Shown: positions 8,111-63,066 of the stretch, one piece after another
Numbering within the stretch: position 1 is the stretch's first letter
Layout: each line of letters opens with the position of its first letter
From: an uncultured Pseudomonadales bacterium
GTDB taxonomy: Bacteria; Patescibacteriota; Microgenomatia; UBA1400; PJMF01
NCBI GenBank assembly: GCA_964645645.1
Contig: CAZYBC010000003.1
Coordinates: 13,369-77,368, forward strand
Direction: 5' to 3'
DNA length: 64,000 nucleotides
Translations under genes and position numbers: made by a program
Notes under the pieces: model-generated
Databases searched by the model: none
Seen by the model: only the letters and a program-made list of their open reading frames with translations
Told to the model about the DNA's origin: nothing

Positions 8111-8118
8111 CTTAACTT

Positions 8119-35900: not shown

Positions 35901-36098
35901 ATTAAATCCATTAATCAAAAAAATATTTTTGGGAAATTCCAACAAATTATTGAAAGTGAATCTGGCAAACCTCCAGGGACTGGTTTGGGTTTGTATATTA
36001 GCAAACAGTTGGTTGAAAAAATGGGAGGTAAAATTTGGCTGGAATCATCAATCCCTGGAAAAGGCAGTACTTTTATCTTCTCTCTTCCAAAAGCATAA
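32970..36098 (+). CDS. multi-domain sensor histidine kinase (periplasmic solute-binding family-3 domain, several PAS domains, HisKA and HATPase)
   Basis: Signal/transmembrane N-terminus. SBP_bac_3-like periplasmic region, then a transmembrane helix (WLFYVLPILIVILTGLIITIILI), repeated PAS-like blocks, H-box SHELRAPL, and GTGLGLYISKQLVEKMGGKIW. Confidence 0.8.
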   Translation: MNWQRWFKSILISLIIFTFICQIPLNLFKTYASENKIIKVGVYENKPKVYRANDGKITGFFPDVLNYIAQQENWQLEYVHGTWEEGLNQLKNGEIDLMVDVAISPERQVEFDFTNETVLNSWAVICVKNNSKIKSFSDLEGKKIGILKSSVYLQGPQSITYYLKSFGINAEFIYVDEYSQLCKLLEEDKIDAAVVSRIFALYNAKNYQNIKQTDLVFNPTELRFALNKNNPDNPYLIERLDYWVKKIKNKETYYQLLKKYNLEEVEIIKKIPPVWLFYVLPILIVILTGLIITIILIRRSKNIALKKWKSSEKKFQSLYESMDELIAIHEIINDKHGQAIDYKIIECNKAYNQLTHLSRAKVIGQLASKLYKINPPPFLSFFANVAKTGKPGHFEYYSPDLNQHLYVSVFSPAPGIFGTIISNMSELKQMEQSLKIERDRAELYLNTVETIIVALDKDGKIISINRKGYELLGYKKDELIGQSWFETCLLQPEGKEKVYPVFKKLVTGKGKNVEFFENKIITKNGEIKLISWHNALLRDKNKKIIGTLSSGNNITVQKQVQEKLIQSEQKFATIFATSTYAITITQLADGSFIDVNDAYVKLTGFTKKETLFNSSISLKLWANPKDRKTVVSDLQKGKPVINREFLFKIKDGSLINGLFSARIISINNQPFIMSSIADITELKQAEQKIIETKDREHAILTSIGDAVFAIDTKGIILLFNKMAEKLSGISTDQAIGNHYSKIVKFIKKNSNIVGDNFINQALEEDKITAMANDTMLLKSDGSEIPVADSAAPIKDINGKIIGCVVVFRDVSKDYELNKTKSEFVSIVSHELRAPLGIIKAFNSMIFDGDYGPINPQLKEPLSEIKNSTDHLASLVNDILNVSRLESGKLSLKLSKFDPQKLINEAVKNFTTVVNKKVNLKTGKLNQSMIEADQDKFLIILNNLLSNAVKFTNKGSITVKSEAVGKFVNFIITDTGIGIKSINQKNIFGKFQQIIESESGKPPGTGLGLYISKQLVEKMGGKIWLESSIPGKGSTFIFSLPKA

Positions 36099-41923: not shown

Positions 41924-42841
41924 CTAACTCATTAGAGGCAAGACTGCGGCCAAGTCTCTAGTTTGTGTTGCTCTAGAAATTAAAGTTTGATCTTTAAGAC
42001 AAATTTGCTGTTGATGATAAGCTGGCCGATGATCTTGGTAAAAAATACCTAAAGGAATCCTCTGATCTGGCTGCATTTTTTGCCAAGCTTGAGTTTTATC
42101 ACCAGCTTGATAGCCTTCTTTAGCCATGTCATAAACTCGGCTAGCAAACCATTGGTAAGTATTATGCTTATTAAACGTTGGACAAGGTTGCAAAATATCC
42201 ACCAAAGAAAAACCAACGTGATTAATAGCTGCTTTCAAAATTTCTACAAACTGCATTACTTGGCCAACATAAGCCCGAGCCACAAAACTAGCTCCAGTGT
42301 CTAAAGCAGTCACCAATGGATTTAAAGGTTGTTCGATCAAACCTTGTGGTGTTGATTTAGTCTTGGTGCCTTGTTCAGTAGTGGGAGAACTTTGCCCAGT
42401 GGTCAAACTATACATTTGGTTATTATGCACTAAGACAGTAATATCATGATTACCTCTGGCTGCTCCAATTAAATGATTAAGCCCTTCACCATAAAGATCG
42501 CCATCACCACCCACCACAATAATTTTTAAATCATGGTTGGCTAATTTGGCTCCAATCGCACTGGCTACCGCTCTACCATGAAGGCCATGAAAACCATAAA
42601 CATTATTGAAATCTGCCATGTTGCCACTACAACCAATACCATAAAAGATAGCTAATTTTTCTTGAGGAATAGCAAGCTGTTCAATTGCTTGTCTTAAGGC
42701 AGCTAAGATAGCAAAATTACCGCAACCTGGACACCAAGTTGGTTTAATAGGTGAAGCAATGGTTTGTTGAGTAAAATTTTCCATAATAAGTTTTCTTTTT
42801 ACAGTTTTGTTATTTAAGTTGCTAGCTGATTTTTTAGCCAA
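41924..42841 (-). CDS. 2-oxoacid:ferredoxin oxidoreductase beta subunit (TPP-binding)
   Basis: WCPGCGNF Cys motif and GDG...N TPP/Mg-binding region (VVGGDGDLYGEGLNH); overlaps the alpha gene. Confidence 0.8.
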   Translation of the reverse strand: MAKKSASNLNNKTVKRKLIMENFTQQTIASPIKPTWCPGCGNFAILAALRQAIEQLAIPQEKLAIFYGIGCSGNMADFNNVYGFHGLHGRAVASAIGAKLANHDLKIIVVGGDGDLYGEGLNHLIGAARGNHDITVLVHNNQMYSLTTGQSSPTTEQGTKTKSTPQGLIEQPLNPLVTALDTGASFVARAYVGQVMQFVEILKAAINHVGFSLVDILQPCPTFNKHNTYQWFASRVYDMAKEGYQAGDKTQAWQKMQPDQRIPLGIFYQDHRPAYHQQQICLKDQTLISRATQTRDLAAVLPLMS

Positions 42842-44565
42842 ATTAGTAAATCTTCGGCATAAAATGGTCGGCCATCATAACGCAAAATTTTATCTTTGAT
42901 GTCAATGCCGGTTTCCTGACGAATTAACTTAGCCCCTTGGCCGGTTACATTTGCTTCCACCATTACCAAATGCTTAGCTTGGCTAGCTAATTGTTGGAAC
43001 TGTTCAGTGGGGAAGGGCCACATACAAGGCAAATGAATCATATTCACTAAAGTCTGACCTGGTTGATCAAGTTCAAACCAAGCTAAAAGCTGTTTAAAAA
43101 CATTAACCGTAGATCCCCAACCCACCATCGTAAATTGAGCTTGAGCTGGCCCCAATAAAACTGGTTGAGGAACTTCTTTACTCAAAGCTGACATTTTTTT
43201 CTGCCGTTTATTTACTTGAGCAATAATTGGTTCAGCTAATTCTGTTGCAAACCCAAATTCATCATGTTCATAAGAATTAGTAATCCCCAAACCAAAATCT
43301 TGACCAGGAATAGAACGAGGCGAAATACCGTTATCAGTAACACGATAACGACGATAGGAATTATCTGGTTTTAATTCTGCTGCACCAGCAATACTATAGC
43401 GTTCTACAGTATATTGAGTAGCTGGCATCGGCATAGTTTGATGAGATTCCAAAATGAGTTTGTCAGATAAAATTAGAACTGGAATTTGGTACCTTTCCGC
43501 CAATTCTAAAGCTAGCTTACCAGCCTGAAAATGTTCTTCAACGGTACCAGGAGTTAAAACTACGCGCACAAAATCACCATGACCAGCTGTTAAGACAAAT
43601 TCTAAATCAGCTTGAGAAGTCCAAGTTGGTAAACCTGTGCCTGGAGCACCCCGTTGAGCAACTAAAATAGCTAAAGGCACTTCGGCCACCCCAATCAAAG
43701 ATAAAGCTTCTACCATCAACGCAAAACCGCCACCCGCACTGCCAGTCATTGCTCTTACGCCAGCATACGCTGCGCCGATAGCTTGATTAATAGCAGCAAT
43801 TTCATCCTCAACATGTTTAACTACTAAAGGATAATTATTTTGCTGTTCAGCTAAAAAGTGGAGTAAACCAGAAGCAGGTGTCATCGGATAGGCGCTGTAA
43901 TATTGAATACCACCAGCTAATGCCCCCAAACCAATCGCTTCACTACCAGTCATTAATAAAGTTTGAGTTTGAGCTTGATTAAATTTAACTTCCTTTGAAC
44001 TAGTGGCTTGAGCCACTTGATAACCTGCCACAAAAGCGGCTAGAATTTTGGCAATTACTTCTGTTGGCTTATCCGCAAATTCTTGATTTAAAACGGTCTG
44101 AATAATTTCTTGTTTAAATTCCACACCAGCCAAATAAAAAGCTGCCCCCGTAGCCACAGCATTAATGGAAATTTTAGACCCAGAAGCTTGCACGGCTAAT
44201 TGTTCTAAAGGAAAATTATAAAAACTAGCCTTAACACCTTGATAGTCAGTAAAAGTAGCTGGCTGATCAGCAAATTCACCAACAATTATCGTGTTTGGAG
44301 TAAGTTCTCCTTGATAAAGAGGCAATGACGTTGGATCTAAAGTGATGAGTAAATCTAAAGCTCTTTTTTGGCAGAAAGCTTGTTCAGCCGCATAAACCTG
44401 ACCAGTTTGTTGACCGCCTTTAATTAGCGACGGATACTCGTAGTAATTAAAAATTTGGTAGCCTAATTTTTGTAAAACTCTGGCTACAATTTTAGAGCTG
44501 GTCATAATTCCGGCCCCAGCTGGACCGGTAATTTTAAGGTTTAGGGAAAGAGTTTGAGTTGACAT
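42814..44565 (-). CDS. 2-oxoacid:ferredoxin oxidoreductase alpha subunit (fused gamma-alpha)
   Basis: 583 aa. N-terminal gamma-like Rossmann (ITGPAGAGIMTSS) fused to alpha domains (GYPMTPAS, transketolase-C-like). No delta ferredoxin subunit, i.e. the two-subunit OFOR architecture. Confidence 0.8.
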   Translation of the reverse strand: MSTQTLSLNLKITGPAGAGIMTSSKIVARVLQKLGYQIFNYYEYPSLIKGGQQTGQVYAAEQAFCQKRALDLLITLDPTSLPLYQGELTPNTIIVGEFADQPATFTDYQGVKASFYNFPLEQLAVQASGSKISINAVATGAAFYLAGVEFKQEIIQTVLNQEFADKPTEVIAKILAAFVAGYQVAQATSSKEVKFNQAQTQTLLMTGSEAIGLGALAGGIQYYSAYPMTPASGLLHFLAEQQNNYPLVVKHVEDEIAAINQAIGAAYAGVRAMTGSAGGGFALMVEALSLIGVAEVPLAILVAQRGAPGTGLPTWTSQADLEFVLTAGHGDFVRVVLTPGTVEEHFQAGKLALELAERYQIPVLILSDKLILESHQTMPMPATQYTVERYSIAGAAELKPDNSYRRYRVTDNGISPRSIPGQDFGLGITNSYEHDEFGFATELAEPIIAQVNKRQKKMSALSKEVPQPVLLGPAQAQFTMVGWGSTVNVFKQLLAWFELDQPGQTLVNMIHLPCMWPFPTEQFQQLASQAKHLVMVEANVTGQGAKLIRQETGIDIKDKILRYDGRPFYAEDLLIWLKNQLAT

Positions 44566-47519: not shown

Positions 47520-47712
47520 TTAAAAATTAATTAAGATTGTTTGGAAGTAAGGTGAAAATCCTTCGCTGTGCCGCAACGGTTAAAGTCCGATACAAGCAAT
47601 CACTTTGAATTATTTTCAAAGTTAAACTGACGAGCATCGGGTTTTTGGTTGCCCAATAAATATTGGCAAACAAAAAAATTTCCCCGTATTGCTCCTCTTT
47701 TGAGGAGTTTTT
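47520..47712 (+). promoter_or_regulatory. cobalamin (AdoCbl-variant-like) riboswitch with terminator expression platform
   Basis: GGAAGTAAGGTGAAAATCCTTCGCTGTGCCGCAACGGTTAAAGTCCGATAC matches the cobalamin aptamer core (GGTGnAAnTCC ... CnGnCCCGCnACnGTnA ... AGYCnGAnAC B12-box-like), without a long peripheral extension. Followed by the hairpin gctcctcttttgaggag plus TTTTTT at 47691-47712, immediately before the ATG. Confidence 0.55.
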
Positions 47713-47714
47713 TA

Positions 47715-48320
47715 ATGGCTATTAACGCCGAATTACTTAGACCAACACGAGTTTTTCATCCAGAAAAAAGTACTCATTTCTGGCAAGATTTAACAGCCGT
47801 AGCTGTTGGTTTTTTTAGTAACTTAAAACTCAATTCCAAAAATCTTTTTCACCCCAATACTAATAAACAAGCTGGTGAAACTTGGCAAAGTTTGTCGTAT
47901 CTAAACAATCGCGATCAGTATCAGCAGCTAACTCAGTTGCTTGAATATATGGCTTTAGAATTGCGAACATATTTTGATGAATATGTCGCTTTAAAAGTTA
48001 TCAAAACTTATCCTAATTTTGGCGAAAAAGGCATTGATAATATTGCTCCATTTAATTTAGTCAGTATTGCTCAGCAAACTAAACAAGATTTAGCCGAAAA
48101 AGGTTTTGATACAACTAGAGCTGATTTAGAAATTATCGCTATGCAAAAACTGCTTAATTTTCTTAGTGATGAACAAGTTCCGATTGGCAGTTGTCTCGTT
48201 TACATTAGTCCACGTGGGCCTAAATATATGTATTTAGGTTATGAACTAAGCAATAACAATTATCTTAATTTGTATCTTAAAAACCGGGCCGGGGCAAGCT
48301 CGATTAATTCAATTGCTTAA
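47715..48320 (+). CDS. hypothetical protein (201 aa), first gene under the riboswitch
   Basis: Start reassigned to MAINAELL, right after the terminator. The tracked start 47649 lies inside the expression platform. Soluble, no motif. Confidence 0.45.
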   Translation: MAINAELLRPTRVFHPEKSTHFWQDLTAVAVGFFSNLKLNSKNLFHPNTNKQAGETWQSLSYLNNRDQYQQLTQLLEYMALELRTYFDEYVALKVIKTYPNFGEKGIDNIAPFNLVSIAQQTKQDLAEKGFDTTRADLEIIAMQKLLNFLSDEQVPIGSCLVYISPRGPKYMYLGYELSNNNYLNLYLKNRAGASSINSIA

Positions 48321-48786
48321 CTATGACGTTAATGAAAGTTTAATTAATCAATTTTTACCTTTTTTAAGCCAACAACAAGCAGCGCAAATTTATTCACCGT
48401 TTCAATCAGCTAATCCTTTGCATCATTTAGCCGCTGGGTCTTTAAGTGATGAACATTTTTTGATTAATACTTTAATGCTCATTCCAGCTGACCAATTCAA
48501 TTTAGATCTAGTCATTCAGCAAGCGTTCCAAAATTCAGCGCAATGGCTAACTAAAATTAGCGACTTTCCTCAATTTGATTATCAAGCTTATGTTCAGCAA
48601 GAAAATCAATTATTAGCTTTATTTAAACAATTAACTGAACAAGTTTTTTCTGCAAATGAAGATCCCCAGTTAAACGCCCAAAAGCTTGATCAATTAGTGG
48701 CCATTATGAAAAAAATTTTCAAAAATGGACAGAAGAAAATGCGAGCAACTATCATCCAGTTAAACAAATTAGCAAACTTAATTTGA
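48313..48786 (+). CDS. hypothetical protein (157 aa)
   Basis: Overlaps the upstream stop by 8 nt (translational coupling); Gln-rich; no motif. Confidence 0.45.
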   Translation: MLNYDVNESLINQFLPFLSQQQAAQIYSPFQSANPLHHLAAGSLSDEHFLINTLMLIPADQFNLDLVIQQAFQNSAQWLTKISDFPQFDYQAYVQQENQLLALFKQLTEQVFSANEDPQLNAQKLDQLVAIMKKIFKNGQKKMRATIIQLNKLANLI

Positions 48787-49367
48787 TGGATATTGAAACT
48801 GAATGGCGCTTAGCTTGTAAAAAAATCACTGGCCAACAACTCAATCAACAAGAGCAACAACACGCGAAACAACTTCAACAACGTTATCAACTTAATCCTA
48901 GTTTGCCTTTACAAAAAATTAGCCACTTAAATTTTTGTTTACCACGTTTTAATTTAGCTAGAAATTTACAAATCCATACTGGGCAAGGATTAAGTAATTT
49001 ACAAGGTTTAGAACTAAATCAATTTTTGCGAAAACAAAAATACATTACTTTAAAACTAGCTGGGCAAGAATGGAAAGTGCCAGCTAGTTACTTAAAAGGC
49101 AAAGGTTGTTATGAAAATGGAGGAGTGGCCTATGGCCCGTGTGGCATTCCTTTAGCGCAAGATCCTTATGCCATTACTTTGGCAGATTATCAGCAGTTGT
49201 TAGACCGTCAACGCTCAGAAAAAAAATCATCCAAAAAAGCTAATCAAAATTTACCGGCCACTAACGATAATGAAAAAATTGATTTGCCACCAGTGAGTCT
49301 AACTGCTTTTATTAATAGTTTGGTTTTTGGCGACCCACTAGAAATCACTAACTTAGACTTAGATTAG
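48783..49367 (+). CDS. hypothetical protein (194 aa)
   Basis: Overlaps the upstream stop by 4 nt. Gln-rich N-terminus and a GCYENGGVAYGPCGIP Cys/Gly motif. Confidence 0.45.
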   Translation: MMDIETEWRLACKKITGQQLNQQEQQHAKQLQQRYQLNPSLPLQKISHLNFCLPRFNLARNLQIHTGQGLSNLQGLELNQFLRKQKYITLKLAGQEWKVPASYLKGKGCYENGGVAYGPCGIPLAQDPYAITLADYQQLLDRQRSEKKSSKKANQNLPATNDNEKIDLPPVSLTAFINSLVFGDPLEITNLDLD

Positions 49368-51159: not shown

Positions 51160-52500
51160 ATGAAAAAAATTTTAGCCTTAATTTTACTTAGCTACTTTAG
51201 ATTTTTTGCTCAGCTACAACTTAAAAAAATTAAACCGTTAATTATTGGCGTTACTGGTACAGCTGGTAAAACCAGCACCCGTGATGAAATTTATGCCATC
51301 CTCAAAAACCACTTTAAAGTAAAAGTTAGTTATAAAGCCAATAGTGAAAGTGGCATTCCGCTTAATATTTTAGGCTTAGCGCCAACTAATTTTTCATTAC
51401 TAGATTGGTTGCGCTTAGCCATTTTAGCGCCTGTAAAATTGCTTACCAATTGGGAAAAATATGATATTTATTTGGTAGAAATGGCCATTGATGGCCCAAC
51501 TCCTCCCAAAAACATGGGCTACCTCTTAACCATTATTAAGCCTGACATTGGCGTTTTTCTAAATACCGCCCTTGTCCACAGTCTTGCTTTTGATCATTTA
51601 GTGGAAGAAACCGATCCAAAATTACGAGCTAAAAAAATCCGCCAAATCATTGCCGCTGAAAAGGGTAAATTAATTACTCAATTACCAAAAAATGGTTTAG
51701 CGGTTTTAAACGCTGATGATGAATCAGTAGCTAATTTTGCTAAACAAACTCAAGCCCAAGTAACTTTATTTGGTCAAAATAAATCCGCCCAATTAAAAAT
51801 CGGCCTGATTACTCAAAATTTAAGCGGCAGTACTTTTACCCTCAGTTATCAACAAGAAAGCGTAACAATCAAAATTAAAAATTATTTACTCCCTGACCAT
51901 TTTGCTTACAGTTTAGCTGCCGCCTGTGCAGTAGGCTTGCATTTAGGTTTAACTCTAGCCACCTGTGCCAAAAACCTTGAAGCTAATTTTAAACTTGCTC
52001 CTGGTAGAGCGACATTAATTCCAGGAATTAAACAAAGTTTAATTTTTGATAGCTCTTACAACTCTTCTCCAAATACAGTGATTGATGGGCTGACAATGTT
52101 GAGCAAAATCAAAGCCAAACGCTTAATTGCGGTACTAGGGGACATGCGCGAAATGGGCCAGCAGAGCAAAACCGAACACGAAAAAGTCGCCCAATTTGCC
52201 GCCAAAACTGCTGATCAAATTATTTTAGTTGGCCAAGAAATGCAAGCTTATGCTTTGCCAGTGTTGGAAAAACTACAAGCTAAAGTAACAAGTTTTGACA
52301 ATGCCTATCAAGCCGCTGATTACTTAAAAACCCAAATTAAGCCAAGTGATCTAATTTTTGTCAAAGGGTCACAAAATACTATTTTCTTAGAAATTGTCGT
52401 AGAAGCCATTATGGCTAATCCCAGTAAAGCTGAACAATTGTTATGCCGAAGAGGGGAAATGTGGGGAAAAAAGAGAATATCAATAAAATCACTTGCTTGA
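51160..52500 (+). CDS. murF: UDP-N-acetylmuramoyl-tripeptide--D-alanyl-D-alanine ligase-like Mur ligase
   Basis: GVTGTAGKTST P-loop, DSSYNSSPNT (MurF DDSYNANP-like), 446 aa. Confidence 0.65.
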   Translation: MKKILALILLSYFRFFAQLQLKKIKPLIIGVTGTAGKTSTRDEIYAILKNHFKVKVSYKANSESGIPLNILGLAPTNFSLLDWLRLAILAPVKLLTNWEKYDIYLVEMAIDGPTPPKNMGYLLTIIKPDIGVFLNTALVHSLAFDHLVEETDPKLRAKKIRQIIAAEKGKLITQLPKNGLAVLNADDESVANFAKQTQAQVTLFGQNKSAQLKIGLITQNLSGSTFTLSYQQESVTIKIKNYLLPDHFAYSLAAACAVGLHLGLTLATCAKNLEANFKLAPGRATLIPGIKQSLIFDSSYNSSPNTVIDGLTMLSKIKAKRLIAVLGDMREMGQQSKTEHEKVAQFAAKTADQIILVGQEMQAYALPVLEKLQAKVTSFDNAYQAADYLKTQIKPSDLIFVKGSQNTIFLEIVVEAIMANPSKAEQLLCRRGEMWGKKRISIKSLA

Positions 52501-52723: not shown

Positions 52724-54466
52724 TTATTCATACTTCTCTTTTTTCTTATACTCCGTATGCAGTAGCTCATGCTCTCGTTCATGGCCTAAACTTTTAGCAT
52801 ACTCCACAAAATCAGTGGCAATTTGATTGTGGTGCGCACAACGCAAATCCATTTTTTTATCAATGGCGTAAAGCCCAGCAATCCGCTGTTCAACAATTTT
52901 TTCAGTGCTAGGAATAGGTTGTCCACCGCCTCCAATACAACCACCGGGGCAAGCCATAAATTCAACATAATCATAGGCTTTGGGATCTCGTTTAATTTCT
53001 CGTAGAACTCGGTGCGCATTAGCTGGGGTAGCCACTACCGCTACTTTAAGGCTTAAATTATCAATCTGAATAGTGGCTTTTTTAATCCCTTTCATGCCGC
53101 GCACTTGTTCAAAATCTACCTTGTCTAAATCTTTACCTGTCAGCATATAAACTGCTGTACGCAAGGCTGATTCCATCACTCCGCCAGAAGCGCCATAAAT
53201 GGCCGCCGCTCCAGAATAATGACCTAATTCATCTAGTTCGCTATCTTCCAGTTTAGTAGGATCTAAACCATATTCACGTAACAAAACCGCTGTTTCACGA
53301 GTGGTCAAAACATAATCTACAGGGGACATCCCGTCAATTTTTAATTTTTCATGGTGACATTCATATTTTTTGGAAGTACAAGGCATAAAAGACACCACCA
53401 CTACTTTTTTAGGATCAATCCCAACTAATTCTGCCCACCAAGTTTTATAAGCTCCACCAGAATGAATTTGCGGTGACCTGGCCGTAGTTAAATGAGGGAT
53501 CATTTCTGGATAATAAAACTCCAAAAATTTTACCCAACCTGGACAACAAGAAGTAAACATCGGTAAAACCTGATCATTTTTAATCCGATTCACTAATTCT
53601 TCAGCTTCCACCAAGGTGGTAATATCCGCGCCCATGTTAACATCAAAAATATAGTCAAAACCAATCTGACGAAAAGCCGTAAACATTTTTTTCTCCAAAT
53701 TAACTCCAGGTTCAATCCCAAATTCTTCACCAATACTGGCCCTCACTGAAGGTGCCATCTGGGCAATCACTACTTTGTCTTCATCTTTAAGAGCGGCAAT
53801 GACTGCTGCCAAATGGCTCTGTTCTCGTACCGCCCCCACGGGGCAATGCACGGTACATTGACCGCAATAAATACAATCAGTTTTAGGATCTTTGTCATGA
53901 TCAATATGATTATCAACGCCCTTACCTTCCAATTGCAAAAAACCAATCCCAATTTTTTCGCACACTTCCACACATTTATTACATTTAATACACATATTGG
54001 GATCAATCTCCGCCGCCGTCACCATCTTATGAATCTTCCAATCTTTTTTTAACTTGTCATACTTTTTACCAGTGATACCATAACTTTTCATCTTTTCATA
54101 AGTGGCACAGTAAAAACCTTGCTGACATTTAGGACATAAATCTAAATGAGAGGCAAATAACAACTCCAGATTTTCTTGACGTAGTTTTTTAACCTGCTCA
54201 GTTAAACTGCTTACCTTTAAACCTTCACTAGCCATTAATGAGCAAGAAGTAACCACCTGGCCAGCTTTTAACTTTTTGTTGTCTCCAGGATCAAGCACTT
54301 CCACCAGGCAAGTGCGGCAACTAGCGCCGACTGGCAAATCTTCGTGATAACAAAAATGAGCAATATCAATTTGCTGAGCTAACGCTACCTGTAGCACATT
54401 TTGTTCAGCTTGAGCTTCACAGGCTTGATCATTAATACTGAGATGAATAATTGGCTTATCTGACAC
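52724..54466 (-). CDS. hydA: [FeFe]-hydrogenase catalytic subunit HydA (with N-terminal 2Fe-2S and 4Fe-4S ferredoxin-like domains)
   Basis: H-cluster motifs FTSCCPGW (L2), FMPCTSKKYE (L1) and EFMACPGGCIGGGGQP (L3). Ferredoxin motifs CIKCNKCVEVCE and CIYCGQCTVHCP. Confidence 0.85.
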   Translation of the reverse strand: MSDKPIIHLSINDQACEAQAEQNVLQVALAQQIDIAHFCYHEDLPVGASCRTCLVEVLDPGDNKKLKAGQVVTSCSLMASEGLKVSSLTEQVKKLRQENLELLFASHLDLCPKCQQGFYCATYEKMKSYGITGKKYDKLKKDWKIHKMVTAAEIDPNMCIKCNKCVEVCEKIGIGFLQLEGKGVDNHIDHDKDPKTDCIYCGQCTVHCPVGAVREQSHLAAVIAALKDEDKVVIAQMAPSVRASIGEEFGIEPGVNLEKKMFTAFRQIGFDYIFDVNMGADITTLVEAEELVNRIKNDQVLPMFTSCCPGWVKFLEFYYPEMIPHLTTARSPQIHSGGAYKTWWAELVGIDPKKVVVVSFMPCTSKKYECHHEKLKIDGMSPVDYVLTTRETAVLLREYGLDPTKLEDSELDELGHYSGAAAIYGASGGVMESALRTAVYMLTGKDLDKVDFEQVRGMKGIKKATIQIDNLSLKVAVVATPANAHRVLREIKRDPKAYDYVEFMACPGGCIGGGGQPIPSTEKIVEQRIAGLYAIDKKMDLRCAHHNQIATDFVEYAKSLGHEREHELLHTEYKKKEKYE

Positions 54467-55496
54467 TGTTTTCCTCCATGTTTAAGACATTTTTCATATA
54501 CGAGTGAATAGGCATTGCTAAAGATTTGCCTAAATCACAAAAAGAAGTTTTTTCCATAACCTGTACTAGCTCAGTAATTCTTGGCCAGGGGATAGGCTGA
54601 CCAAATTCTAATTTTTCTAGGAGAGCATAGAGCTGAGCACTACCTTCTCGGCAAGGGGTACACTTGCCACAGGTTTCATTTTTATAAAATTCAAACCAGC
54701 GTTTTAAAACATCATAGGGTTGGGCATCAGTGCCATAAACTTCAATTGCCCCACAACCAGTTAGCACTTGATTAGCTATCTGGTCAACATTAAAAACTTC
54801 ACCACTGGCACTGCCACCAACCTGAACAAAAAAATTAAAGCTGGGCCAATTCTGAGTGAGTTGCAAAATTTCCTTAACTGTCGCCTCATTAGCGACTTCA
54901 TAAACCCCAGGGTGGGGAATTGGGCCAGAGATAGTCGTAAAACGAGTGGGTTTAAAAGTCCCTTGCGCCACTCTAGCTACATCATAAAAAGTCTCAACAT
55001 TATTAATTAAGACCGGTTTACCAAAGATTCCACTTAAAGAAGGCGAAACTGTCTCGAGACGAGGCTGAGTACGTTTACCTTCAATAGCATTCAACATCGC
55101 TCCACTTTCACCTCCAATATAGCTTGGTTCTTCAATGAAAAAGTTAAATTTGAGCTTTTGGCGGTCTAAGTAGCTATCTGCTAATTTTTGCAGCTCCTTA
55201 CCAACTCGAGAAAAGTAGTGTTTATTGATATTAAAATAGGCTTCTTCCACCTCTAGAAACTGCATAGCTTCAACCATGCCTGCAAAAACCATTTGCGGAA
55301 AATGTTCCAAAATATACAAATCTTTTTTTACTCCAGGTTCACCTTCACTAGCATTACACACTACATAACCAATTGGCTTACCTAATTCTTTCAGCCTTTG
55401 CCATTTAAGATGAGCAGGGAAGCCCGCTCCACCACGGCCAACTAGGTTAGCCTGCTTAATTTTTTCTAAAATGGTATTGCTGTAGTCATTCGGCAT
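54456..55496 (-). CDS. NuoF-like flavoprotein subunit (HydB-like, short form)
   Basis: GRGGAGFP NADH/FMN-binding motif and 4Fe-4S motif CGKCTPCREG. 346 aa. Overlaps hydA by 11 nt. Confidence 0.7.
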   Translation of the reverse strand: MPNDYSNTILEKIKQANLVGRGGAGFPAHLKWQRLKELGKPIGYVVCNASEGEPGVKKDLYILEHFPQMVFAGMVEAMQFLEVEEAYFNINKHYFSRVGKELQKLADSYLDRQKLKFNFFIEEPSYIGGESGAMLNAIEGKRTQPRLETVSPSLSGIFGKPVLINNVETFYDVARVAQGTFKPTRFTTISGPIPHPGVYEVANEATVKEILQLTQNWPSFNFFVQVGGSASGEVFNVDQIANQVLTGCGAIEVYGTDAQPYDVLKRWFEFYKNETCGKCTPCREGSAQLYALLEKLEFGQPIPWPRITELVQVMEKTSFCDLGKSLAMPIHSYMKNVLNMEENSVR

Positions 55497-55498
55497 AA

Positions 55499-56065
55499 TT
55501 ATTTAGCTTGAGTTTTAAAAACTTGATAAACCGTATAAGCAATGAGCCCCCCCAGTAAAGCCGTGGCCAATTGTGGCCAACTCATCATTACTGACATGGG
55601 TGAAATAAACTTGGCAGGCAGAAGTTTAGTCAAAATTTGCTGGCTGAATAAATTCAGCCATAAAAATTTGATACTAGCCGCCGCCATCACACTTAAACCC
55701 CAATTCTTTTTTACTAATTTGGCAAAAATTAAAATATATAAACTATTACTTAACATAATAAAAGGCACCATGGCCGCTAAGGGAGCAGGTAAAGTACCAC
55801 TAGCTAAGGCTACAGTACTCGGAATTAAACCAAGTAGCATGGCTTCACTAGAACCCACCCACAAACAAGCTAAAAGCAAGCTGGCATTAACTAACGGGCC
55901 AGTAATAAACTGCTGATGGATAATGGCTGGAACAACTAGCATTATTGTACTCAGACCCAGCATCACGGCTAATTTTTGTAACCAAGCTAAATTAAGAGTT
56001 TGGCTGGTCACGACCGATTCAGAAGTATGATTAGAAAAAGATTTAGAAAAGGCAGAATTGGGCAT
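55499..56065 (-). CDS. polytopic membrane protein (possible ECF-transporter S-component/BioY-like)
   Basis: 188 aa, ~6 hydrophobic segments; assignment by size and topology only. Confidence 0.3.
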   Translation of the reverse strand: MPNSAFSKSFSNHTSESVVTSQTLNLAWLQKLAVMLGLSTIMLVVPAIIHQQFITGPLVNASLLLACLWVGSSEAMLLGLIPSTVALASGTLPAPLAAMVPFIMLSNSLYILIFAKLVKKNWGLSVMAAASIKFLWLNLFSQQILTKLLPAKFISPMSVMMSWPQLATALLGGLIAYTVYQVFKTQAK

Positions 56066-56368: not shown

Positions 56369-57064
56369 TTAAAACCGCCACCCCACATAATGAATTTTTT
56401 TGCCTAATTTAAGATTCTTTTTTTCAAAGCGAGTTTGTACGCTAGTTAAAAAAGGGATCCCCAAATCTTGAGCATAAATATCCTGGCTCTGATTAATCAC
56501 CTGGGCACGATAAGCCGCCAATTCTGCTAAGGTAAAATCAAACAATCCTTGATTATCAGTTTTTAGCTGCACTAAACCACCGGGCTTAATAATTTGCTGA
56601 TAAAGTTGTAAAAATTTCTGACCAGTTAAACGTCTTTTAGCATGGCGATCTTTAGGGTATGGATCAGGGAAAGTCAGCCAAATTTCATCTACACTTTTAG
56701 TAGGGAGATAAGCTAATAATTCTTCAATATAAATGCGCAAAAAAAGCAAGTTATCTAAATGCAAATTTAAGGCTTGTTTGGCCCCACGGTATAAACGCTC
56801 ACCTTGAATATCAACGCCAATAAATTTTTTGTCAGGATTTTGCTCTGCCATTGCTACGCTATACTCACCATAGCCACAAGCTAATTCTAAAACTAAGGGT
56901 CTTGGGTCAACTAGAAATTTTTTTAACTGAGCTAAAATTTGCCAAAGTGGCGCTTGATCATCAGCCAACTTAACTGCTGAAGGATGAATTTCACCAGGCA
57001 GTCTTTGCACTACATTAGCAAAAGTATTAAGTTGGGCAAATTTTTCTAATTTGGTTTTTGGCAT
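56369..57064 (-). CDS. trmB: tRNA (guanine46-N7)-methyltransferase TrmB
   Basis: LELACGYGEYSVAMAEQNPDKKFIGVDIQ SAM motif plus the TrmB-specific context (W...FPDP). Confidence 0.75.
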   Translation of the reverse strand: MPKTKLEKFAQLNTFANVVQRLPGEIHPSAVKLADDQAPLWQILAQLKKFLVDPRPLVLELACGYGEYSVAMAEQNPDKKFIGVDIQGERLYRGAKQALNLHLDNLLFLRIYIEELLAYLPTKSVDEIWLTFPDPYPKDRHAKRRLTGQKFLQLYQQIIKPGGLVQLKTDNQGLFDFTLAELAAYRAQVINQSQDIYAQDLGIPFLTSVQTRFEKKNLKLGKKIHYVGWRF

Positions 57065-57138: not shown

Positions 57139-57666
57139 TTATTCTAAAGTTAATTTCATAGAATCAACTGTACCAAAAGAGCCTTTGATATTGCCAAAAA
57201 CTCTAACAATGAAAGTTTTTTCTTGTTTGTTAGCCATTGAACTTAATTTACCAATAGCGCCAAAAACACCACCCATATCTTTAAGATCATCAGCATTAGT
57301 GTTAATTAAGCTATAAGCAACATCAAAATTCACTACTTTTTCACTACCAGCTTTCATGGTAAAACCTTCTAAAACTTTGTTGCCAACCAAATGAGTTTTG
57401 GATTTTTTAACTGGACCTTGAGCAGTACTCTTAGTTTCAGTAATGGTTTCTTCAATTTTAATTTCGATGTTATCAAGAGTAGTTTCATCTTTGCAGGTAA
57501 AGAGCAGTTTACCTTTTAAACTTTTACCTTTACTGCTAATAACTGGATCCATATCAATCTTAACTTTAGCCCCACCAATATTTAAAAGTTTTTTTGCTTT
57601 ACTAACTAAATTAGCAAAAAAGCCTGGTTGAGCATTTTTCTCTGTTTTGGTTTGATTTTCTGACAT
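57139..57666 (-). CDS. Spo0M-family-like protein (hypothetical)
   Basis: N-terminal FFANLVSKAKKLLNIGGAKVKIDMD resembles the Spo0M start (FKKLL.S.GIGAAKVDT); beta-rich. Confidence 0.35.
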   Translation of the reverse strand: MSENQTKTEKNAQPGFFANLVSKAKKLLNIGGAKVKIDMDPVISSKGKSLKGKLLFTCKDETTLDNIEIKIEETITETKSTAQGPVKKSKTHLVGNKVLEGFTMKAGSEKVVNFDVAYSLINTNADDLKDMGGVFGAIGKLSSMANKQEKTFIVRVFGNIKGSFGTVDSMKLTLE

Positions 57667-58581: not shown

Positions 58582-59487
58582 ATGAAAACTTATTTTGCAC
58601 CTCACTGGCCTGATTATCAATTGCTGGATAGTGGCAAGCAACAACGCTTAGAAAAATTTGGTCCCTATTTAATTGTTAAACCAGACCCCATGGCTAATTG
58701 GCAACCCCAGTTGAGCCCAGCCGAGTGGAACAAAGCAACCGCAATTTTTTCTGGTAAACCAGGGCAAACAGATTTAACTTGGCAAATTAAAAACCAGCCA
58801 GCAAATTCTCAAATTACCATTGATAATTTAACTAACCAAGGCTGGCCTTTAAGTTTTGGTTCAATTAAATTTTATGCTCGCTTAACTCCTTATAAACACG
58901 TGGGTTTTTTTCCTGAGCAAGCTTTTCACTGGCAATGGTTAGAACAATTAGTCAAAACCCACCAATCCTCTAAACCGCTTAAAGCGCTTAATTTATTTGC
59001 TTATACTGGAGTAAGCTCTTTAGTTTTAGCATCATTAGGAGTGAAAGTGACTCACGTGGATTCTTCTTACCCAGCCATTGCGTGGGCTAAAAAAAACCAA
59101 GAGCTGTCTAACTTACCACCAGACTCTATCCGCTGGATTAGAGAAGATGCACTAAAATTTGTGCAAAGGGAAGTTAAACGTGGCAATCAATACCACATTA
59201 TTTTGTTGGATCCACCTGGTTTTGGGCATGGACCTCACAAAGAAAAATGGAGTTTTAATCAGCATTTTCCGCTTTTGCTTAAAGCCTGCCGACAAATCTT
59301 AGCTCCGGATGCCCTGGCTTTGCTGGTTAATGCTTATACTCAATCATCTTCTATTTTAAGTAAAACTTTTTTACAAACAATGGCCGATCTACCAGGTAAT
59401 ATCACTTTAGGTAAATTAGCCATCGCCAATAAAACAAAGATCGATAATGTTCTCACAACTGGTATTTTTGCTCGCTGGGAAAAATAA
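58582..59487 (+). CDS. class I SAM-dependent methyltransferase, RlmI/RlmKL-like
   Basis: LNLFAYTGVSSLVLA (motif I variant), HVDSS, and IILLDPPGFGHG (the DPPxF motif of the RlmI/YccW-type rRNA m5C methyltransferases). Confidence 0.55.
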   Translation: MKTYFAPHWPDYQLLDSGKQQRLEKFGPYLIVKPDPMANWQPQLSPAEWNKATAIFSGKPGQTDLTWQIKNQPANSQITIDNLTNQGWPLSFGSIKFYARLTPYKHVGFFPEQAFHWQWLEQLVKTHQSSKPLKALNLFAYTGVSSLVLASLGVKVTHVDSSYPAIAWAKKNQELSNLPPDSIRWIREDALKFVQREVKRGNQYHIILLDPPGFGHGPHKEKWSFNQHFPLLLKACRQILAPDALALLVNAYTQSSSILSKTFLQTMADLPGNITLGKLAIANKTKIDNVLTTGIFARWEK

Positions 59488-59494
59488 ACTAAGT

Positions 59495-62400
59495 TTATAG
59501 CGTTAAAACAAAGCCAATTTGCGCTAGATTAACCACTACCGTTGCTTTTTTTTCCAATTCAGGCAGATATTCCGCAAAAACCTGTCGCACTTGACCAATT
59601 AAGACAGCTTGCTTGGCTGGCTCAACTGGATTAGCTTGGTTTTGCCAAACGTAATTCATGTAATCAATAAATTGTTCTTGATAAAGTTTTACTGACTCCA
59701 CTAATTTAGGCCCATCGAGGTGCATACCGCATTCATAATTTTCATCACCACGGCATTCTGCCCGATTTTTTCCTGGCTTAGTACATTGTTCACAGCCAAC
59801 ACTGGCATGAGTTTCTTTTAAGCCATGTTCTGGCAAATGGTAGACAGCTGCCAACCGTTGTTTTTCGGCATCCATGTACTCTTTAGTCGCTGCTATCCAA
59901 GGATGGACGTGTAATTGGCCATCTTTAAGTTTTAAAACTTGATTACCCGCACGACCGCGCAAAGAGCTAAGCATCACTGGAGGACTATCTAGATCTAGAG
60001 TCCATTCTGCCAAGGCTAAAACTTTTCTTAACCCACAACACATTTTATTAAAAACCTGTTTATTAGTAGCTATTTCTTCTTGATCAGCTGAATCAGGCCA
60101 AAATTCATATTGGCTTTGGGGAAAACTGAAAATCGCTTCTAATTTTTCTACTAATGGTGATTTGACTTTAATGATATCTAAATTTAAAACTTCAGCAACT
60201 TGATCTAAATAAGCTAAAACTTCTGGGAAATGATTGCCTGTATCTCCAAAAACAACTGGCACTTTAAGCTCAGTTTTTTGGCTAATTTCCGCAATCGCTG
60301 ATAAAGCAAAACCACTATTAGGTTGCGCGGAGGTCATTAAATAAACGTTGCCTGGATCAAGCTTCACTGCCCAATCTAGAATTTCTTGAGGATTAAATTG
60401 GCCCATAAATTGATTGAGTTTTTCTAATTCATCAAGAGGCAAGGCCATAATGTCGGTTTTGGTATAAATTTTACCAAAACTTTGTAGCATTTTTTTCTCA
60501 ACTGAGTTGTGGTAAAGTTGTCTTTCCATTTCTCTAAAATTGCTGACCGTTTCCATTAAACGCCGACAGTTTTCTTGCCAAAGCTGAGTAATCATAAGTA
60601 GTTTATATTCCACGTCTAATAAACGATGAGAAACTTGAAAGCCATCTCTGTTTTCAATTAAACTTTCTGCTAAAATTTCTTTGCGTTTCATTAAAAGCTC
60701 AGTGATTAATTGCACTAACTCAATTTTTGGCCCAAAACGTAACATCGAAGGATGTTTTTTGCCTTTGTTAACAGCAACTCTGAGATTACCAGCTTCATCA
60801 GCTTCTGATTCCGCAGTAATATCAATAAAAGGGTTACCTGTAAAAATTTTGCTATCATTAAACTGTAATTGTCCGTTTTTTAAGCTTGTGCCAGCTCTTA
60901 ATAAAGCTCTGATTCTCTTTAATTCAGTATCGCTAAAAGCTTTACCATCTGTACCTTTAATTAAAAATGATAAAGTCATAGATGGGACTAAATCTGGATT
61001 ATTATCATCCATTAATTTAATTTGTTGCTGTTTAGCTAATTGCTTTCTAGTTAAAGAACGCAACCAATCAATACCTGCTTGTAAATAACCTTCTGGGAGA
61101 TGATGAAATTCATTATATTTTTTGGCTACTCCTAATTCTTTAGCCAAAACATTAAAGTTAACAGCTAAATCATCAGCTAAACCGGCTTCTTGTAATTTGG
61201 CTACTAATAATTTTTCCAAATCATCTGGCAAAAAACCAATGCCAAAGTAACGATAAAGTAAAGTTAATTCTTCTTGGCTAGCATATTGAATTTTATCTCT
61301 TAAAATAGCTATAGCTTGATCAGTATAGTAAAAAACTCCACCCAATTTTAAACCGCCAATTGCTTTGGAAAACGTGCTCATTAAAACCGCAGAAATATTA
61401 TTTTGTTCACAAGTTTCTAAAATTCTTTCTGGATTAACTAACCATCTTTCTTGAGCCACATCTAATACAAGCATAATTTGGCCTTGACGCTCCAAAAATT
61501 GAGCGACAATTTCTTTTTGGGCTGAAGTAAGTTGCTCGCTGGCTAAAAGTTTTTCCAAATTAAAATAGCTAATTAAAGTTTCAATATCTTTATAAATCAA
61601 ACCACCTTTGGGCGGAATCGCAATCACATGAGAATAAACTGGGGCGGGTAAACCTTCCGGTATCTCTAATTTTAAACATCGTTCTAAACCTTTGACTAAG
61701 GTATCTAAATGTAATCTGGAAAATTCTGCAAAAGATAAAGCTTCACCATCTTTTTTACGATAGGGGATAGTATTTAATTCCAAATGAGGGGTTGTGTTTT
61801 TTACTCCATCCTGATTAGCATATTCAGCTAAACCTCCTCCTAAGGCTGTCCCTTCTGCCGCATCTTTAACTGTACTGCCAGCCTCTACCACTTGGCCCAT
61901 TACCCCAATTGCTAAACCGCCTGCAAAACCAGCCGGATAAACCCCATGCGTGCCAGAAATAGCAAAAGATTGAGCAAAACTACGACCATTTTGACGATAT
62001 AAAGCAGTTTCATCTCTTAATACATCAAACAAAAACTTGGCAGCTTGTTTTCTTTGTTGAGGATTTTCTAATCTCTCTAAACGCATGGATAACTGCAACC
62101 AAGCTAAAGTATTTTTAAAAACTTGACTATTAAGATTAAGTGAATTGCCAGTTGTTGAATCCACGCCTAAAAGCAAAGGAATTAAGTTGTCTAAAAATTT
62201 TTGATGTTTTTCTCTAATTTTTTGCAAACATTGCACCTGTTGTTCATTTAAAGGTTGATTATGATCAAAATGAGCAAAAATAGCAGGAAAAGTAAGTTGG
62301 GCTAAATTTAGTAAAATTGCTTCTTCTTTTTCTTTAGTTAAAAAATTACCTTGAGTTAAACCATCCACATATGGATCAGATCCTGTCGGCAAAACCTTGG

Positions 62401-62881
62401 CTAAAGCTTGTCTTAATGCTTTTGCTTCTTTGCTAAGAGAGTCTGGCAATCCTCCTGGTAATTCTGGTTTTTCTTGACCAGCTTGAATTTGAGCTTCTAG
62501 CTCAACCCAAGAACGAGGCGTATTTCTGGTATCAACACCTTGATCTAAACATTTAGTCCAGGTTTGTAAAACTTCTTGCCTTAAGTCTGGGGATAAGGTT
62601 TCTAGTTGTTCTGCTAAAACTGACTCTGCTAAATTAGCTCTGGGTAAAAAAATGCCTACCTCCGCTAATTTAGTTTCTAAAATTTTAATCAATTCTCGCT
62701 CAGAATGGGGTTTTTGATCTTCTGGCAAATTTCCAAGCTCATTCAGAAAAAGTTTAGCAGCGATAATTGGATTAAGTGCTCCTATATCCCAAAGACTAGC
62801 TAAGTTGTTAGGTAAATGTCCTGGTTCAAAATCAATAGAATTATTAGGTTGAGTTTCAAGTTGATGCATAGACTTTTTCAA
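59495..62881 (-). CDS. 1128-aa multidomain protein: N-terminal unknown region, central PLP-dependent (cysteine-desulfurase/aminotransferase-like) fold, C-terminal PAPS-reductase-like ATP-pyrophosphatase domain
   Basis: Central LVLDVAQERW...MSTFSKAIGGLKLGGVFY resembles the PLP-lysine region of NifS/IscS (SxHK-x2-GPKGxGxLY) with Ser in place of His. C-terminal domain has CCGLRKVLALAEW and ECGMH (CysH/DndC-family KxECGLH signature), plus a CEQC...C...C cluster. Confidence 0.55.
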   Translation of the reverse strand: MKKSMHQLETQPNNSIDFEPGHLPNNLASLWDIGALNPIIAAKLFLNELGNLPEDQKPHSERELIKILETKLAEVGIFLPRANLAESVLAEQLETLSPDLRQEVLQTWTKCLDQGVDTRNTPRSWVELEAQIQAGQEKPELPGGLPDSLSKEAKALRQALAKVLPTGSDPYVDGLTQGNFLTKEKEEAILLNLAQLTFPAIFAHFDHNQPLNEQQVQCLQKIREKHQKFLDNLIPLLLGVDSTTGNSLNLNSQVFKNTLAWLQLSMRLERLENPQQRKQAAKFLFDVLRDETALYRQNGRSFAQSFAISGTHGVYPAGFAGGLAIGVMGQVVEAGSTVKDAAEGTALGGGLAEYANQDGVKNTTPHLELNTIPYRKKDGEALSFAEFSRLHLDTLVKGLERCLKLEIPEGLPAPVYSHVIAIPPKGGLIYKDIETLISYFNLEKLLASEQLTSAQKEIVAQFLERQGQIMLVLDVAQERWLVNPERILETCEQNNISAVLMSTFSKAIGGLKLGGVFYYTDQAIAILRDKIQYASQEELTLLYRYFGIGFLPDDLEKLLVAKLQEAGLADDLAVNFNVLAKELGVAKKYNEFHHLPEGYLQAGIDWLRSLTRKQLAKQQQIKLMDDNNPDLVPSMTLSFLIKGTDGKAFSDTELKRIRALLRAGTSLKNGQLQFNDSKIFTGNPFIDITAESEADEAGNLRVAVNKGKKHPSMLRFGPKIELVQLITELLMKRKEILAESLIENRDGFQVSHRLLDVEYKLLMITQLWQENCRRLMETVSNFREMERQLYHNSVEKKMLQSFGKIYTKTDIMALPLDELEKLNQFMGQFNPQEILDWAVKLDPGNVYLMTSAQPNSGFALSAIAEISQKTELKVPVVFGDTGNHFPEVLAYLDQVAEVLNLDIIKVKSPLVEKLEAIFSFPQSQYEFWPDSADQEEIATNKQVFNKMCCGLRKVLALAEWTLDLDSPPVMLSSLRGRAGNQVLKLKDGQLHVHPWIAATKEYMDAEKQRLAAVYHLPEHGLKETHASVGCEQCTKPGKNRAECRGDENYECGMHLDGPKLVESVKLYQEQFIDYMNYVWQNQANPVEPAKQAVLIGQVRQVFAEYLPELEKKATVVVNLAQIGFVLTL

Positions 62882-63066
62882 TATTTTAAATTATATATTG
62901 AGTCTTTAATAGTTACTTAAAGTTTATAGTTATTGGTTAATTTTCACTAAACCAAATAGAGTAAGTAATAAATATGTATAAAAAAAGATATTCTATGCGT
63001 ATTATAGGACTTTGTCAAGGTTAAACCAGGTTTATTTTTTATTTTAAGTTATAATTAATCAGATCT

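Follow-up and report, generated by a model that had tools for sequence, protein, structure and literature searches.

A patescibacterial protein joining a divergent class-V-like pyridoxal-phosphate fold to an APS-reductase-type domain

What is the function of a single polypeptide that joins a region resembling a pyridoxal 5'-phosphate (PLP) enzyme to a domain resembling a sulfonucleotide reductase? The question is raised by a gene in a 64,000-nucleotide (nt) stretch of DNA, hereafter the window, from an uncultured bacterium of the GTDB lineage Patescibacteriota (contig CAZYBC010000003.1, positions 13,369 to 77,368). At 59495-62881 on the minus strand, a single open reading frame (ORF) of 1128 codons runs without interruption from a TTG start, the end coordinate taking in the stop codon, and encodes a protein of 1128 amino acids (aa). 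The original prediction, made from the sequence alone, described this protein as a cysteine-desulfurase-like PLP region fused to a 3'-phosphoadenosine 5'-phosphosulfate (PAPS) reductase-like domain of CysH/DndC type, and proposed a new enzyme of sulfur transfer or nucleic-acid modification. Our analysis supported the two-domain composition of the single chain. The polypeptide consists of four parts, i.e., a helical N-terminus (residues 1-220), a PLP module of ~575 aa, a reductase domain (residues 817-1056) and a helical extension of ~70 aa, and we hold this domain anatomy with high confidence. It is best described as a new architecture, in which a new fold-type-I PLP sequence family is combined with a divergent adenosine 5'-phosphosulfate (APS) reductase-type domain, and its chemistry probably belongs to sulfur amino-acid metabolism rather than to DNA modification.

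The expectation of a PLP fold had been based on a lysine-containing block in the central region (STFSKAIGGLKLGGVFY, residues 502-518). An AlphaFold model of residues 1-800, built from a 6-sequence alignment, was of moderate quality, with a mean predicted local distance difference test score (pLDDT) of 59.7 and a predicted template-modelling score (pTM) of 0.64. Foldseek returned 200 matches to this model at E<=1e-3, and the best 50 of the 200 were all fold-type-I PLP enzymes; carbon-sulfoxide lyases, PvdN, MppP, CsdA, a NifS-like protein, selenocysteine lyase, SufS and IscS were among the top matches. The features that define fold type I, a large alpha/beta domain with a seven-stranded sheet plus a small domain, are present in the model and occupy approximately residues ~290-730 (60692-62014, minus strand, as for all features of the gene given below). 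In fold-type-I enzymes, the aspartate that binds the pyridine ring ends a strand and the Schiff-base lysine lies in a loop, and this canonical arrangement is the one modelled here: D474 ends the strand 468-474 and K506, 32 residues past D474, is located in the loop between strands 497-501 and 516-519. D474 is invariant in the family and is predicted to contact the pyridine nitrogen, while K506, at the modelled Schiff-base position, is invariant in all six distinct members. Alignment of the family to E. coli IscS, SufS and CsdA with hhalign was not significant (E 0.38) and serves as a register check only; the best segment of that alignment placed D474/Q477 on IscS D180/Q183, and K506 within one residue of K206. 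We conclude from the model that the central module has a true PLP fold of class-V-like type, though an extremely divergent one, in which the cofactor site looks intact; it is closest to the class V enzymes, i.e., C-S lyases, NifS-like proteins and AGT. Both the predicted fold, with class-V/NifS-like proteins as the best structural matches, and the predicted lysine, conserved in all homologues, were therefore borne out.

Searches by sequence gave a very different picture of the same module. Residues 1-810 had no Pfam, NCBIfam, PHROG, PADLOC or PDB sequence match, even for fragments at E<=10, and a profile of the family matched no PDB chain at E<=10. Of the Pfam models put forward in the original prediction, PF01507 did match, in the C-terminal domain, but PF00266 and PF00155, together with related models, found nothing in the PLP-like module. 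Homologues were identified by an exhaustive HMMER search of 1.84 billion cluster representatives; word-indexed searches returned only the public call of the protein itself (P0001, 1124 aa, beginning at the ATG of M5), or P0001 and P0002, and the exhaustive search was needed to recover the family. Five relatives of the N-terminal/central region were found, all of them standalone proteins; outside the target, the module occurs as a separate protein of ~700-800 aa. P0002 (580 aa, cut by a contig end) has 53% identity to target residues 223-795, P0003 (781 aa) has 41% identity to residues 109-798, and P0005, P0006 and P0007 (704-794 aa) have 29-31% identity in phmmer matches to residues ~221-743, or 26-27% to the target across the whole alignment. 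These five, like P0004, a relative of the C-terminal part described below, are annotated by their sources as hypothetical proteins of Patescibacteria or Saccharibacteria metagenome-assembled genomes (MAGs), and the 90%-identity clusters of all six together hold ~9 sequences out of 15 billion. One MAG with a family member (L004, CAZPFY010000007.1) is labelled 'uncultured Pseudomonadales', in contrast to the Patescibacteria/Saccharibacteria origin of the other members, which is probably due to mis-binning or a mislabel. No further match was obtained when residues 1-810 were compared with plasmids and phages by tblastn, and nothing was found in scans of JGI metagenomes (with the profile of this N-terminal family and for the pair with a CysH-like gene), of viral contigs, or of genomes with the single protein as query.

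The module common to this Patescibacteria-only family corresponds to residues 221-795 (60497-62221). It is preceded by residues 1-220 (62222-62881), which are poorly conserved, mostly helical, modelled with low confidence and without a family match. The six-member alignment revealed invariant positions along the whole module: T243-T244, S309-G-T-H312, Q330, G335, T337, V338, P373 and R375, followed by P423, K425, G427, Y430, D474, A476, Q477, R479 and W480, then M501, T503, S505, K506, G515 and G682-N683, and finally H710, R715, G717, N771, R774 and Y790. Several of them can be assigned putative roles. The invariant S309-G310-T311-H312 (61946-61957) is a candidate PLP-phosphate-binding loop by presumed equivalence. 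D474-V-A-Q477 (61451-61462), with D, A and Q invariant, stands at the end of the predicted strand 468-474, and T503-F-S505-K506 (61364-61375), with T, S and K invariant, lies in the loop after strand 497-501 and contains the candidate Schiff-base lysine. The invariant R715 (60737-60739, in H710-x4-R715-x-G717) may be the alpha-carboxylate-binding arginine of fold type I.

In contrast to the fold, the proposed cysteine desulfurase activity did not survive the comparison, since no cysteine is conserved anywhere in the six-member alignment. The region of the desulfurase catalytic-cysteine loop corresponds to the invariant G682-N683, and the lysine motif is S-T-x-S-K, without the histidine of S-G-H-K; the D-x-A-Q motif is present and invariant. 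Because the catalytic cysteine loop is absent, the module, as judged from its sequence, does not belong to the canonical cysteine desulfurases such as DndA, SspA and IscS. A cysteine-independent chemistry, such as C-S lyase, beta-replacement, desulfination or transamination, appears more plausible. Cysteine-independent NifS-like reactions are known, for example those of the C-DES cystine lyase and the desulfination of cysteine sulfinate. Compared to the class-V fold-type-I enzymes, including the cystine C-S lyase C-DES (1elq), a NifS-like protein (4ixo), CsdA/SufS/IscS, the carbon-sulfoxide lyases of Egt2/EgtE type, PvdN and AGT, the module lacks significant sequence similarity, the catalytic cysteine loop and the SGHK motif. 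Furthermore, the protein is about twice their size, with an N-terminus longer by ~290 residues, with insertions and with long helices at the C-terminus, and the module is restricted to a handful of Patescibacteria. A regex search for a conventional class-V enzyme found none in the window or in the five loci of relatives considered below (L001-L005).

The C-terminal part of the protein was much easier to place. Residues 817-1056 (59714-60433) form a divergent sulfonucleotide (APS/PAPS) reductase domain. All family matches were confined to this end of the protein and all were to CysH/APS-reductase models: PF01507 matched residues 864-1035 with 31.1 bits (34.9 when the domain was scanned alone) against a cutoff of 22.5, and NF002537 aligned over positions 14-240 of 244 with 67 bits, against an equivalog cutoff of 154. 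None of the NCBIfam equivalog cutoffs (NF002537, TIGR02055, TIGR02057, TIGR00434) was reached. The PDB sequence matches were all CysH/APS reductases, and PHROGs gave a weak PAPS-reductase match only. An AlphaFold model of the domain, built from a 60-sequence alignment, had a pLDDT of 89.4 and a pTM of 0.88, and its top 22 Foldseek matches were exclusively PAPS/APS reductases (E 9e-12 to 1e-7, template-modelling (TM) score 0.65-0.79), followed after a clear gap by FAD synthase, CysD, TtuA, LarE and GMP synthetase. The predicted fold was thereby confirmed, and the CC...RK and ECGxH signatures reported earlier are both present.

The residues expected of a [4Fe-4S] enzyme are well preserved in this domain. 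MCCGLRK (residues 947-953, 60023-60043) contains the predicted first pair of cluster ligands, C948 and C949, and the invariant lysine K953; GCEQCT (1029-1034, 59780-59797) provides the predicted second pair in a CxxC arrangement, C1030 and C1033; and ECGMH (1050-1054, 59720-59734) is the catalytic-cysteine motif of CysH/APS reductases. The CC, CxxC and ECGxH motifs as well as K953, R977 and R1044 are conserved across 60 homologues, in which C1051 is invariant and the E, G and H of ECGMH are at least 90% conserved; DTGxHF is also present. The CC...CxxC residues that set APS reductases apart from PAPS reductases are thus in place. At the PP-loop position the domain has TSAQPNSG, a degenerate sequence of the CysH SSFG type, whereas the intact PP-loop consensus is SGGxDS. 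Models of DndC in NCBIfam or PADLOC gave no match at E<=1, and SspD matched only locally, with 15.4 bits over 42 residues (867-908). Based on the lack of a DndC match, the 15-bit local SspD match, the degenerate PP-loop, and the presence of ECGxH and the Fe-S cysteines, the domain is of the CysH/APS-reductase type and not of the DndC/SspD type, and the DndC part of the original label was not supported.

When compared to the assimilatory [4Fe-4S] APS reductases/CysH of P. aeruginosa (2goy), M. tuberculosis (7lhr) and V. vulnificus (6vpu), the domain has the same fold (Foldseek E 1e-11 to 1e-8, TM ~0.7-0.79), the DTGxHF, CCxxRK, GCxxCT and ECGxH motifs and the degenerate PP-loop. Unlike known CysH proteins, it has only ~20-30% identity to them, no free C-terminal tail after the catalytic cysteine, and the fusion to a PLP module. 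Its atypical features are a 17-aa insertion, an Arg-loop shorter by 5 residues, an additional conserved cysteine (C1043) and the helical extension of ~70 aa. The extension (residues 1057-1128, 59498-59713) contains two long predicted helices and is absent from ordinary CysH; the catalytic cysteine is therefore followed by ~70-74 further residues instead of standing on a free flexible tail. The only protein that shares the extension is P0004 (369 aa), a standalone protein and the sole close relative of the C-terminal part in the HMMER search, which has ~55-56% identity to the target and keeps all catalytic and cluster residues. At the extreme C-terminus (target residues 1121-1128), the target has GFVLTL and P0004 has GFVIP; MAFFT aligned both with the D/A-F-x-I at the ends of several ordinary CysH proteins, which could reflect a terminal motif common to them or be an artefact of the alignment.

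The origin of the fusion can be followed at the nucleotide level, as P0002 and P0004 are adjacent genes on L001, a 9.1-kb Logan contig syntenic with the window. Downstream of this gene pair, L001 encodes an RlmI-like protein (convergent), TrmB, an ECF-like membrane protein, a Nuo51-like protein and an [FeFe]-hydrogenase. P0002 ends with TAA, and 2 nt further on the ATG of the CysH-like P0004 follows in another frame. DNA alignment revealed that the window differs from L001 by the lack of a 125-nt block (L001 1740-1864), which in L001 holds the last upstream codons, the stop, the 2-nt spacer, the start codon and ~33 leader codons of P0004. Since 125 equals 3x41+2, the absence of the block exactly cancels the frame offset and two frames become one. 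The joint lies between ~60508 and 60507 (60503-60512). Slightly downstream come an A7 run (60491-60497) and, right after it, the in-frame ATG of M798 (run and ATG together 60488-60497), from which a separate CysH-like product might be translated internally; the P0004 ORF is continuous and can be aligned in frame with the window to either side of the run. The run was considered as an artefactual fusion point and ruled out, the 125-nt indel joint being located upstream of it. All other family members stop shortly past Y790, and the fused state is therefore the derived one. No other fusion of this PLP module with a CysH-like domain was found among the 1.84 billion representatives or in literature searches. 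The nearest ordinary CysH relatives, where fused, have a sulfite reductase or DUF934 as partner and never a PLP domain. The NIR_SIR sulfite reductase-CysH and DUF934-CysH proteins resemble the target in that the reductase domain stands at the C-terminal end of a larger protein and its partner belongs to the same pathway; they differ in the partner, which is not a PLP enzyme, and in their canonical CysH (105-140 bits).

How might the two halves work together? Because the C-terminal domain has lost none of the features required of an APS reductase and has none that is peculiar to ATP pyrophosphatases, the most economical reading is that it would bind a sulfonucleotide (APS or PAPS), which C1051 would attack to give an enzyme thiosulfonate (Cys-S-SO3-), and that a thiol reductant would then free sulfite from the C1051 thiosulfonate. 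The putative carboxylate-binding arginine and the lack of a catalytic cysteine fit an amino-acid lyase or beta-replacement step, and the substrate of the PLP module would accordingly be an alpha-amino acid, on which the module would act as a lyase or in beta-replacement and not as a desulfurase. Gene fusions usually join consecutive steps, the nearest CysH relatives being fused to sulfite reductase or DUF934 as pathway neighbours, sulfite is the product of CysH, and PLP-dependent beta-replacement with sulfite exists in cysteate synthase. The module may therefore use the sulfite or sulfur species, for example to form a sulfonated amino acid (cysteate or S-sulfocysteine); alternatively, it may perform an adjacent step of the same sulfur amino-acid pathway. 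In either case, the fusion would hold a reactive intermediate local. The enzymes of the cysteate synthase and CysK/CysM type, which use sulfite or thiosulfate as nucleophile on a PLP-aminoacrylate in a step that logically follows CysH, are of fold type II and have no homology to the module, so that the likeness is a presumed functional analogy only. We consider a real functional partnership between the PLP module and the reductase domain to be fairly likely. That the two are coupled in sulfur amino-acid chemistry is the best overall explanation, although we hold it tentatively, at somewhat less than an even chance, while the specific sulfite-coupling mechanism is rather doubtful. It is also conceivable, although rather unlikely, that the chain carries out sulfur transfer on its own, as a novel type of enzyme: the mobile C1051, as a thiol, persulfide or thiosulfonate, would serve in trans as the nucleophile or sulfur carrier that the cysteine-less NifS-like PLP site lacks, and a sulfonucleotide would be converted directly to or from an amino acid containing sulfur or a sulfonate group (S-sulfocysteine, cysteate) without free sulfite. 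Chemistry of this kind has so far been described for neither of the two superfamilies, and the family that would perform it here, of PLP fold type I, is not known from outside the Patescibacteria.

Several observations weigh against a sulfur-coupled PLP enzyme of this kind. Residues 1-58, 106-181, 308-369 and 503-514 of the model are poorly defined, the loops carrying SGTH and K506 have pLDDT values below 50, and the sequence-level similarity of the module to PLP enzymes is not significant in PDB profile searches or hhalign. The reductase domain is unusually divergent, with 31-35 bits on PF01507 in comparison to 105-140 for ordinary CysH, and its insertion, short Arg-loop and C-terminal extension could hinder the usual movement of the tail. 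The cysteate synthases known so far are of fold type II and not type I. Within the window, to which our view of the genome was limited, no Sat, CysC, CysDN or thioredoxin was detected among the 40 ORFs of at least 120 aa scanned against Pfam. Finally, at four more distant family loci (L002-L005), no PAPS-reductase-like sequence is present within 10 kb on either side, which indicates that the PLP module can perform its core function without the reductase; the partnership is thus confined to the lineage that comprises the window and L001. The neighbours at these four loci share no common theme (HAD hydrolase, YibE/F membrane protein, solute-binding protein, unknowns).

An alternative is that unrelated neighbours were fused by a neutral deletion, with the PLP module acting as an aminotransferase, lyase or decarboxylase on a non-sulfur substrate and the reductase being independent or decaying. 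Four of the six family members lack a CysH-like neighbour, the association occurs in two related genomes only, and the reductase domain is highly divergent. In contrast, the 2-nt spacing of the L001 genes suggests translational coupling, the CysH-like partner is a distinctive subtype (insertion, 70-aa extension) found only with this PLP module, and, with 55% identity between the two genomes, not one catalytic or cluster residue has been lost, which argues for selection; we regard a chance union as unlikely, though with an appreciable share of the probability. That the organism truly has two genes, as in L001, and that the single ORF arose from mis-assembly or an indel error, is suggested by the sequence being a singleton from one MAG contig, with an A7 run and the in-frame ATG of M798 near the junction. 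Judging from the sequence, an assembly artefact is nevertheless improbable, because the difference from L001 is one clean 125-nt block that exactly restores the frame, the joint lies outside the A7 run, both flanks align in frame to the P0004 ORF, and the ORFs of the window are intact throughout despite 147 homopolymers of at least 7 bases.

Two further alternatives concern what the fused protein would do. In a relay like that of DndA/DndC or SspA/SspD, the PLP module would mobilise cysteine sulfur and the PAPS-reductase-like domain would adenylate and thiolate DNA or RNA. Those systems resemble the target in pairing a class-V-like PLP protein with a protein of the PAPS-reductase superfamily bearing Fe-S cysteines, and the class-V/NifS-like fold with its D-x-A-Q motif, the membership of the C-terminal domain in the DndC/SspD superfamily with its weak local SspD match, and the RNA-modification genes nearby would all be in keeping with it. 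However, DndA-DndC and SspA-SspD are separate proteins, with a true cysteine desulfurase that has a catalytic cysteine, a PP-loop ATP pyrophosphatase and DndBDE/SspBC partners, none of which applies to the target: without a conserved cysteine, the PLP family has no persulfide-forming nucleophile, the PP-loop is degenerate as in CysH, no DndC model matched, TtuA and LarE fall far behind the CysH/APS reductases in structural matches, and no dndBDE or sspBC gene was found among the neighbours, the other scanned ORFs of the window or L001. As every DndA/DndC hallmark tested fails (catalytic cysteine, PP-loop, model matches, partner genes), the analogy holds only at the superfamily level, and we judge such a relay very improbable. 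Even less probable is a pseudoenzyme, in which the PLP-like module, as a catalytically dead scaffold, would do no more than regulate the reductase domain or determine its location. The lack of detectable sequence similarity to PLP families and the low model confidence of the active-site loops would agree with a pseudoenzyme, but K506, D474, Q477, T503, S505, SGTH and R715 are invariant across members that are only 26% identical, and the family also occurs without the reductase.

The genomic setting gives no indication of a nucleic-acid modification context. A sigma-70-like promoter match (TTGACA, 17 nt, TAGAAT; 62990-63018, minus strand; 11/12, a consensus match only) is located ~110 nt upstream of the start, inside the divergent intergenic region shared with a radical S-adenosylmethionine (SAM) gene, which begins at 63067 on the plus strand and runs past the window end. 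On the other side, an RlmI-like SAM methyltransferase gene (58582-59487, plus strand) is convergent with the fusion gene, and trmB follows at 56369-57064 (minus strand). Given the convergent RlmI-like gene and the divergent radical-SAM gene, the fusion gene is in no operon with these neighbours and is therefore monocistronic. The RNA-modification genes RlmI-like and TrmB named in the original prediction are indeed present, while HemW is seen only as the radical-SAM gene cut by the window end; none of them is co-transcribed with the fusion gene, and with no dnd or ssp partner among the scanned ORFs the proposed role in nucleic-acid modification was not upheld. Between trmB and the RlmI-like gene, a 175-aa ORF without Pfam match is present at 57139-57666 (minus strand), and in L001 a Cu-oxidase_4 (PF02578) gene occupies roughly this position instead. 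An antisense ORF of 135 aa inside the fusion gene (60681-61088, plus strand) has most likely arisen by chance, the sequence being AT-rich.

The remainder of the window contains several other features. A block at 52724-56065 (minus strand) encodes an [FeFe]-hydrogenase large subunit (Fer2, Fer4), a Nuo51-like FMN/NADH subunit and a weakly ECF-S-like membrane protein, and is kept in synteny with L001 5724-9095. The alpha/gamma and beta subunits of a pyruvate/2-oxoacid:ferredoxin oxidoreductase are encoded at 41924-44565 (minus strand), which together with the hydrogenase is consistent with a fermentative, ferredoxin-based metabolism. An AdoCbl-II (B12) riboswitch (47527-47603, plus strand) lies directly upstream of three small TTG-start ORFs of 223, 157 and 194 aa (47649-49367, plus strand); the first and third have no Pfam match, and together the three may form an uncharacterised operon under B12 control, for transport or salvage. 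A sensor histidine kinase of 1042 aa, in which a periplasmic SBP_bac_3 domain is combined with several PAS domains (32970-36098, plus strand), represents signalling unusually elaborate for a putative genome of the candidate phyla radiation (CPR), and a separate two-component pair is located at 19734-21438 (minus strand). The window also encodes a type IIG/IIL restriction-modification enzyme in a single chain of 1015 aa, with Eco57I, N6_Mtase, MmeI_Mtase, MmeI_N and TaqI_C domains (11756-14803, plus strand), three Mur-ligase family paralogues within 64 kb (6863-9567 and 51160-52500, both plus strand), and a 613-aa radical-SAM protein with Radical_SAM_C, an Elp3-like architecture (21616-23457, minus strand), adjoined by a class I methyltransferase gene (23488-24246, plus strand).

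CPR bacteria have a minimal metabolism, and sulfate-reduction genes are rare among them. A previous report found cysH/aprA in ~5% of CPR MAGs (PMC11608272). The PLP module constitutes a sequence family that is new within a very well-studied fold; as sequence searches of Pfam, NCBIfam and the PDB do not detect it, its members are annotated everywhere as hypothetical proteins, and the fusion to a reductase domain is a clue to the function of this orphan family. The presence of a divergent APS-reductase-type domain together with an orphan PLP enzyme in a CPR lineage suggests that these organisms have a route of sulfur amino-acid or sulfonate metabolism that has so far gone unrecognised.

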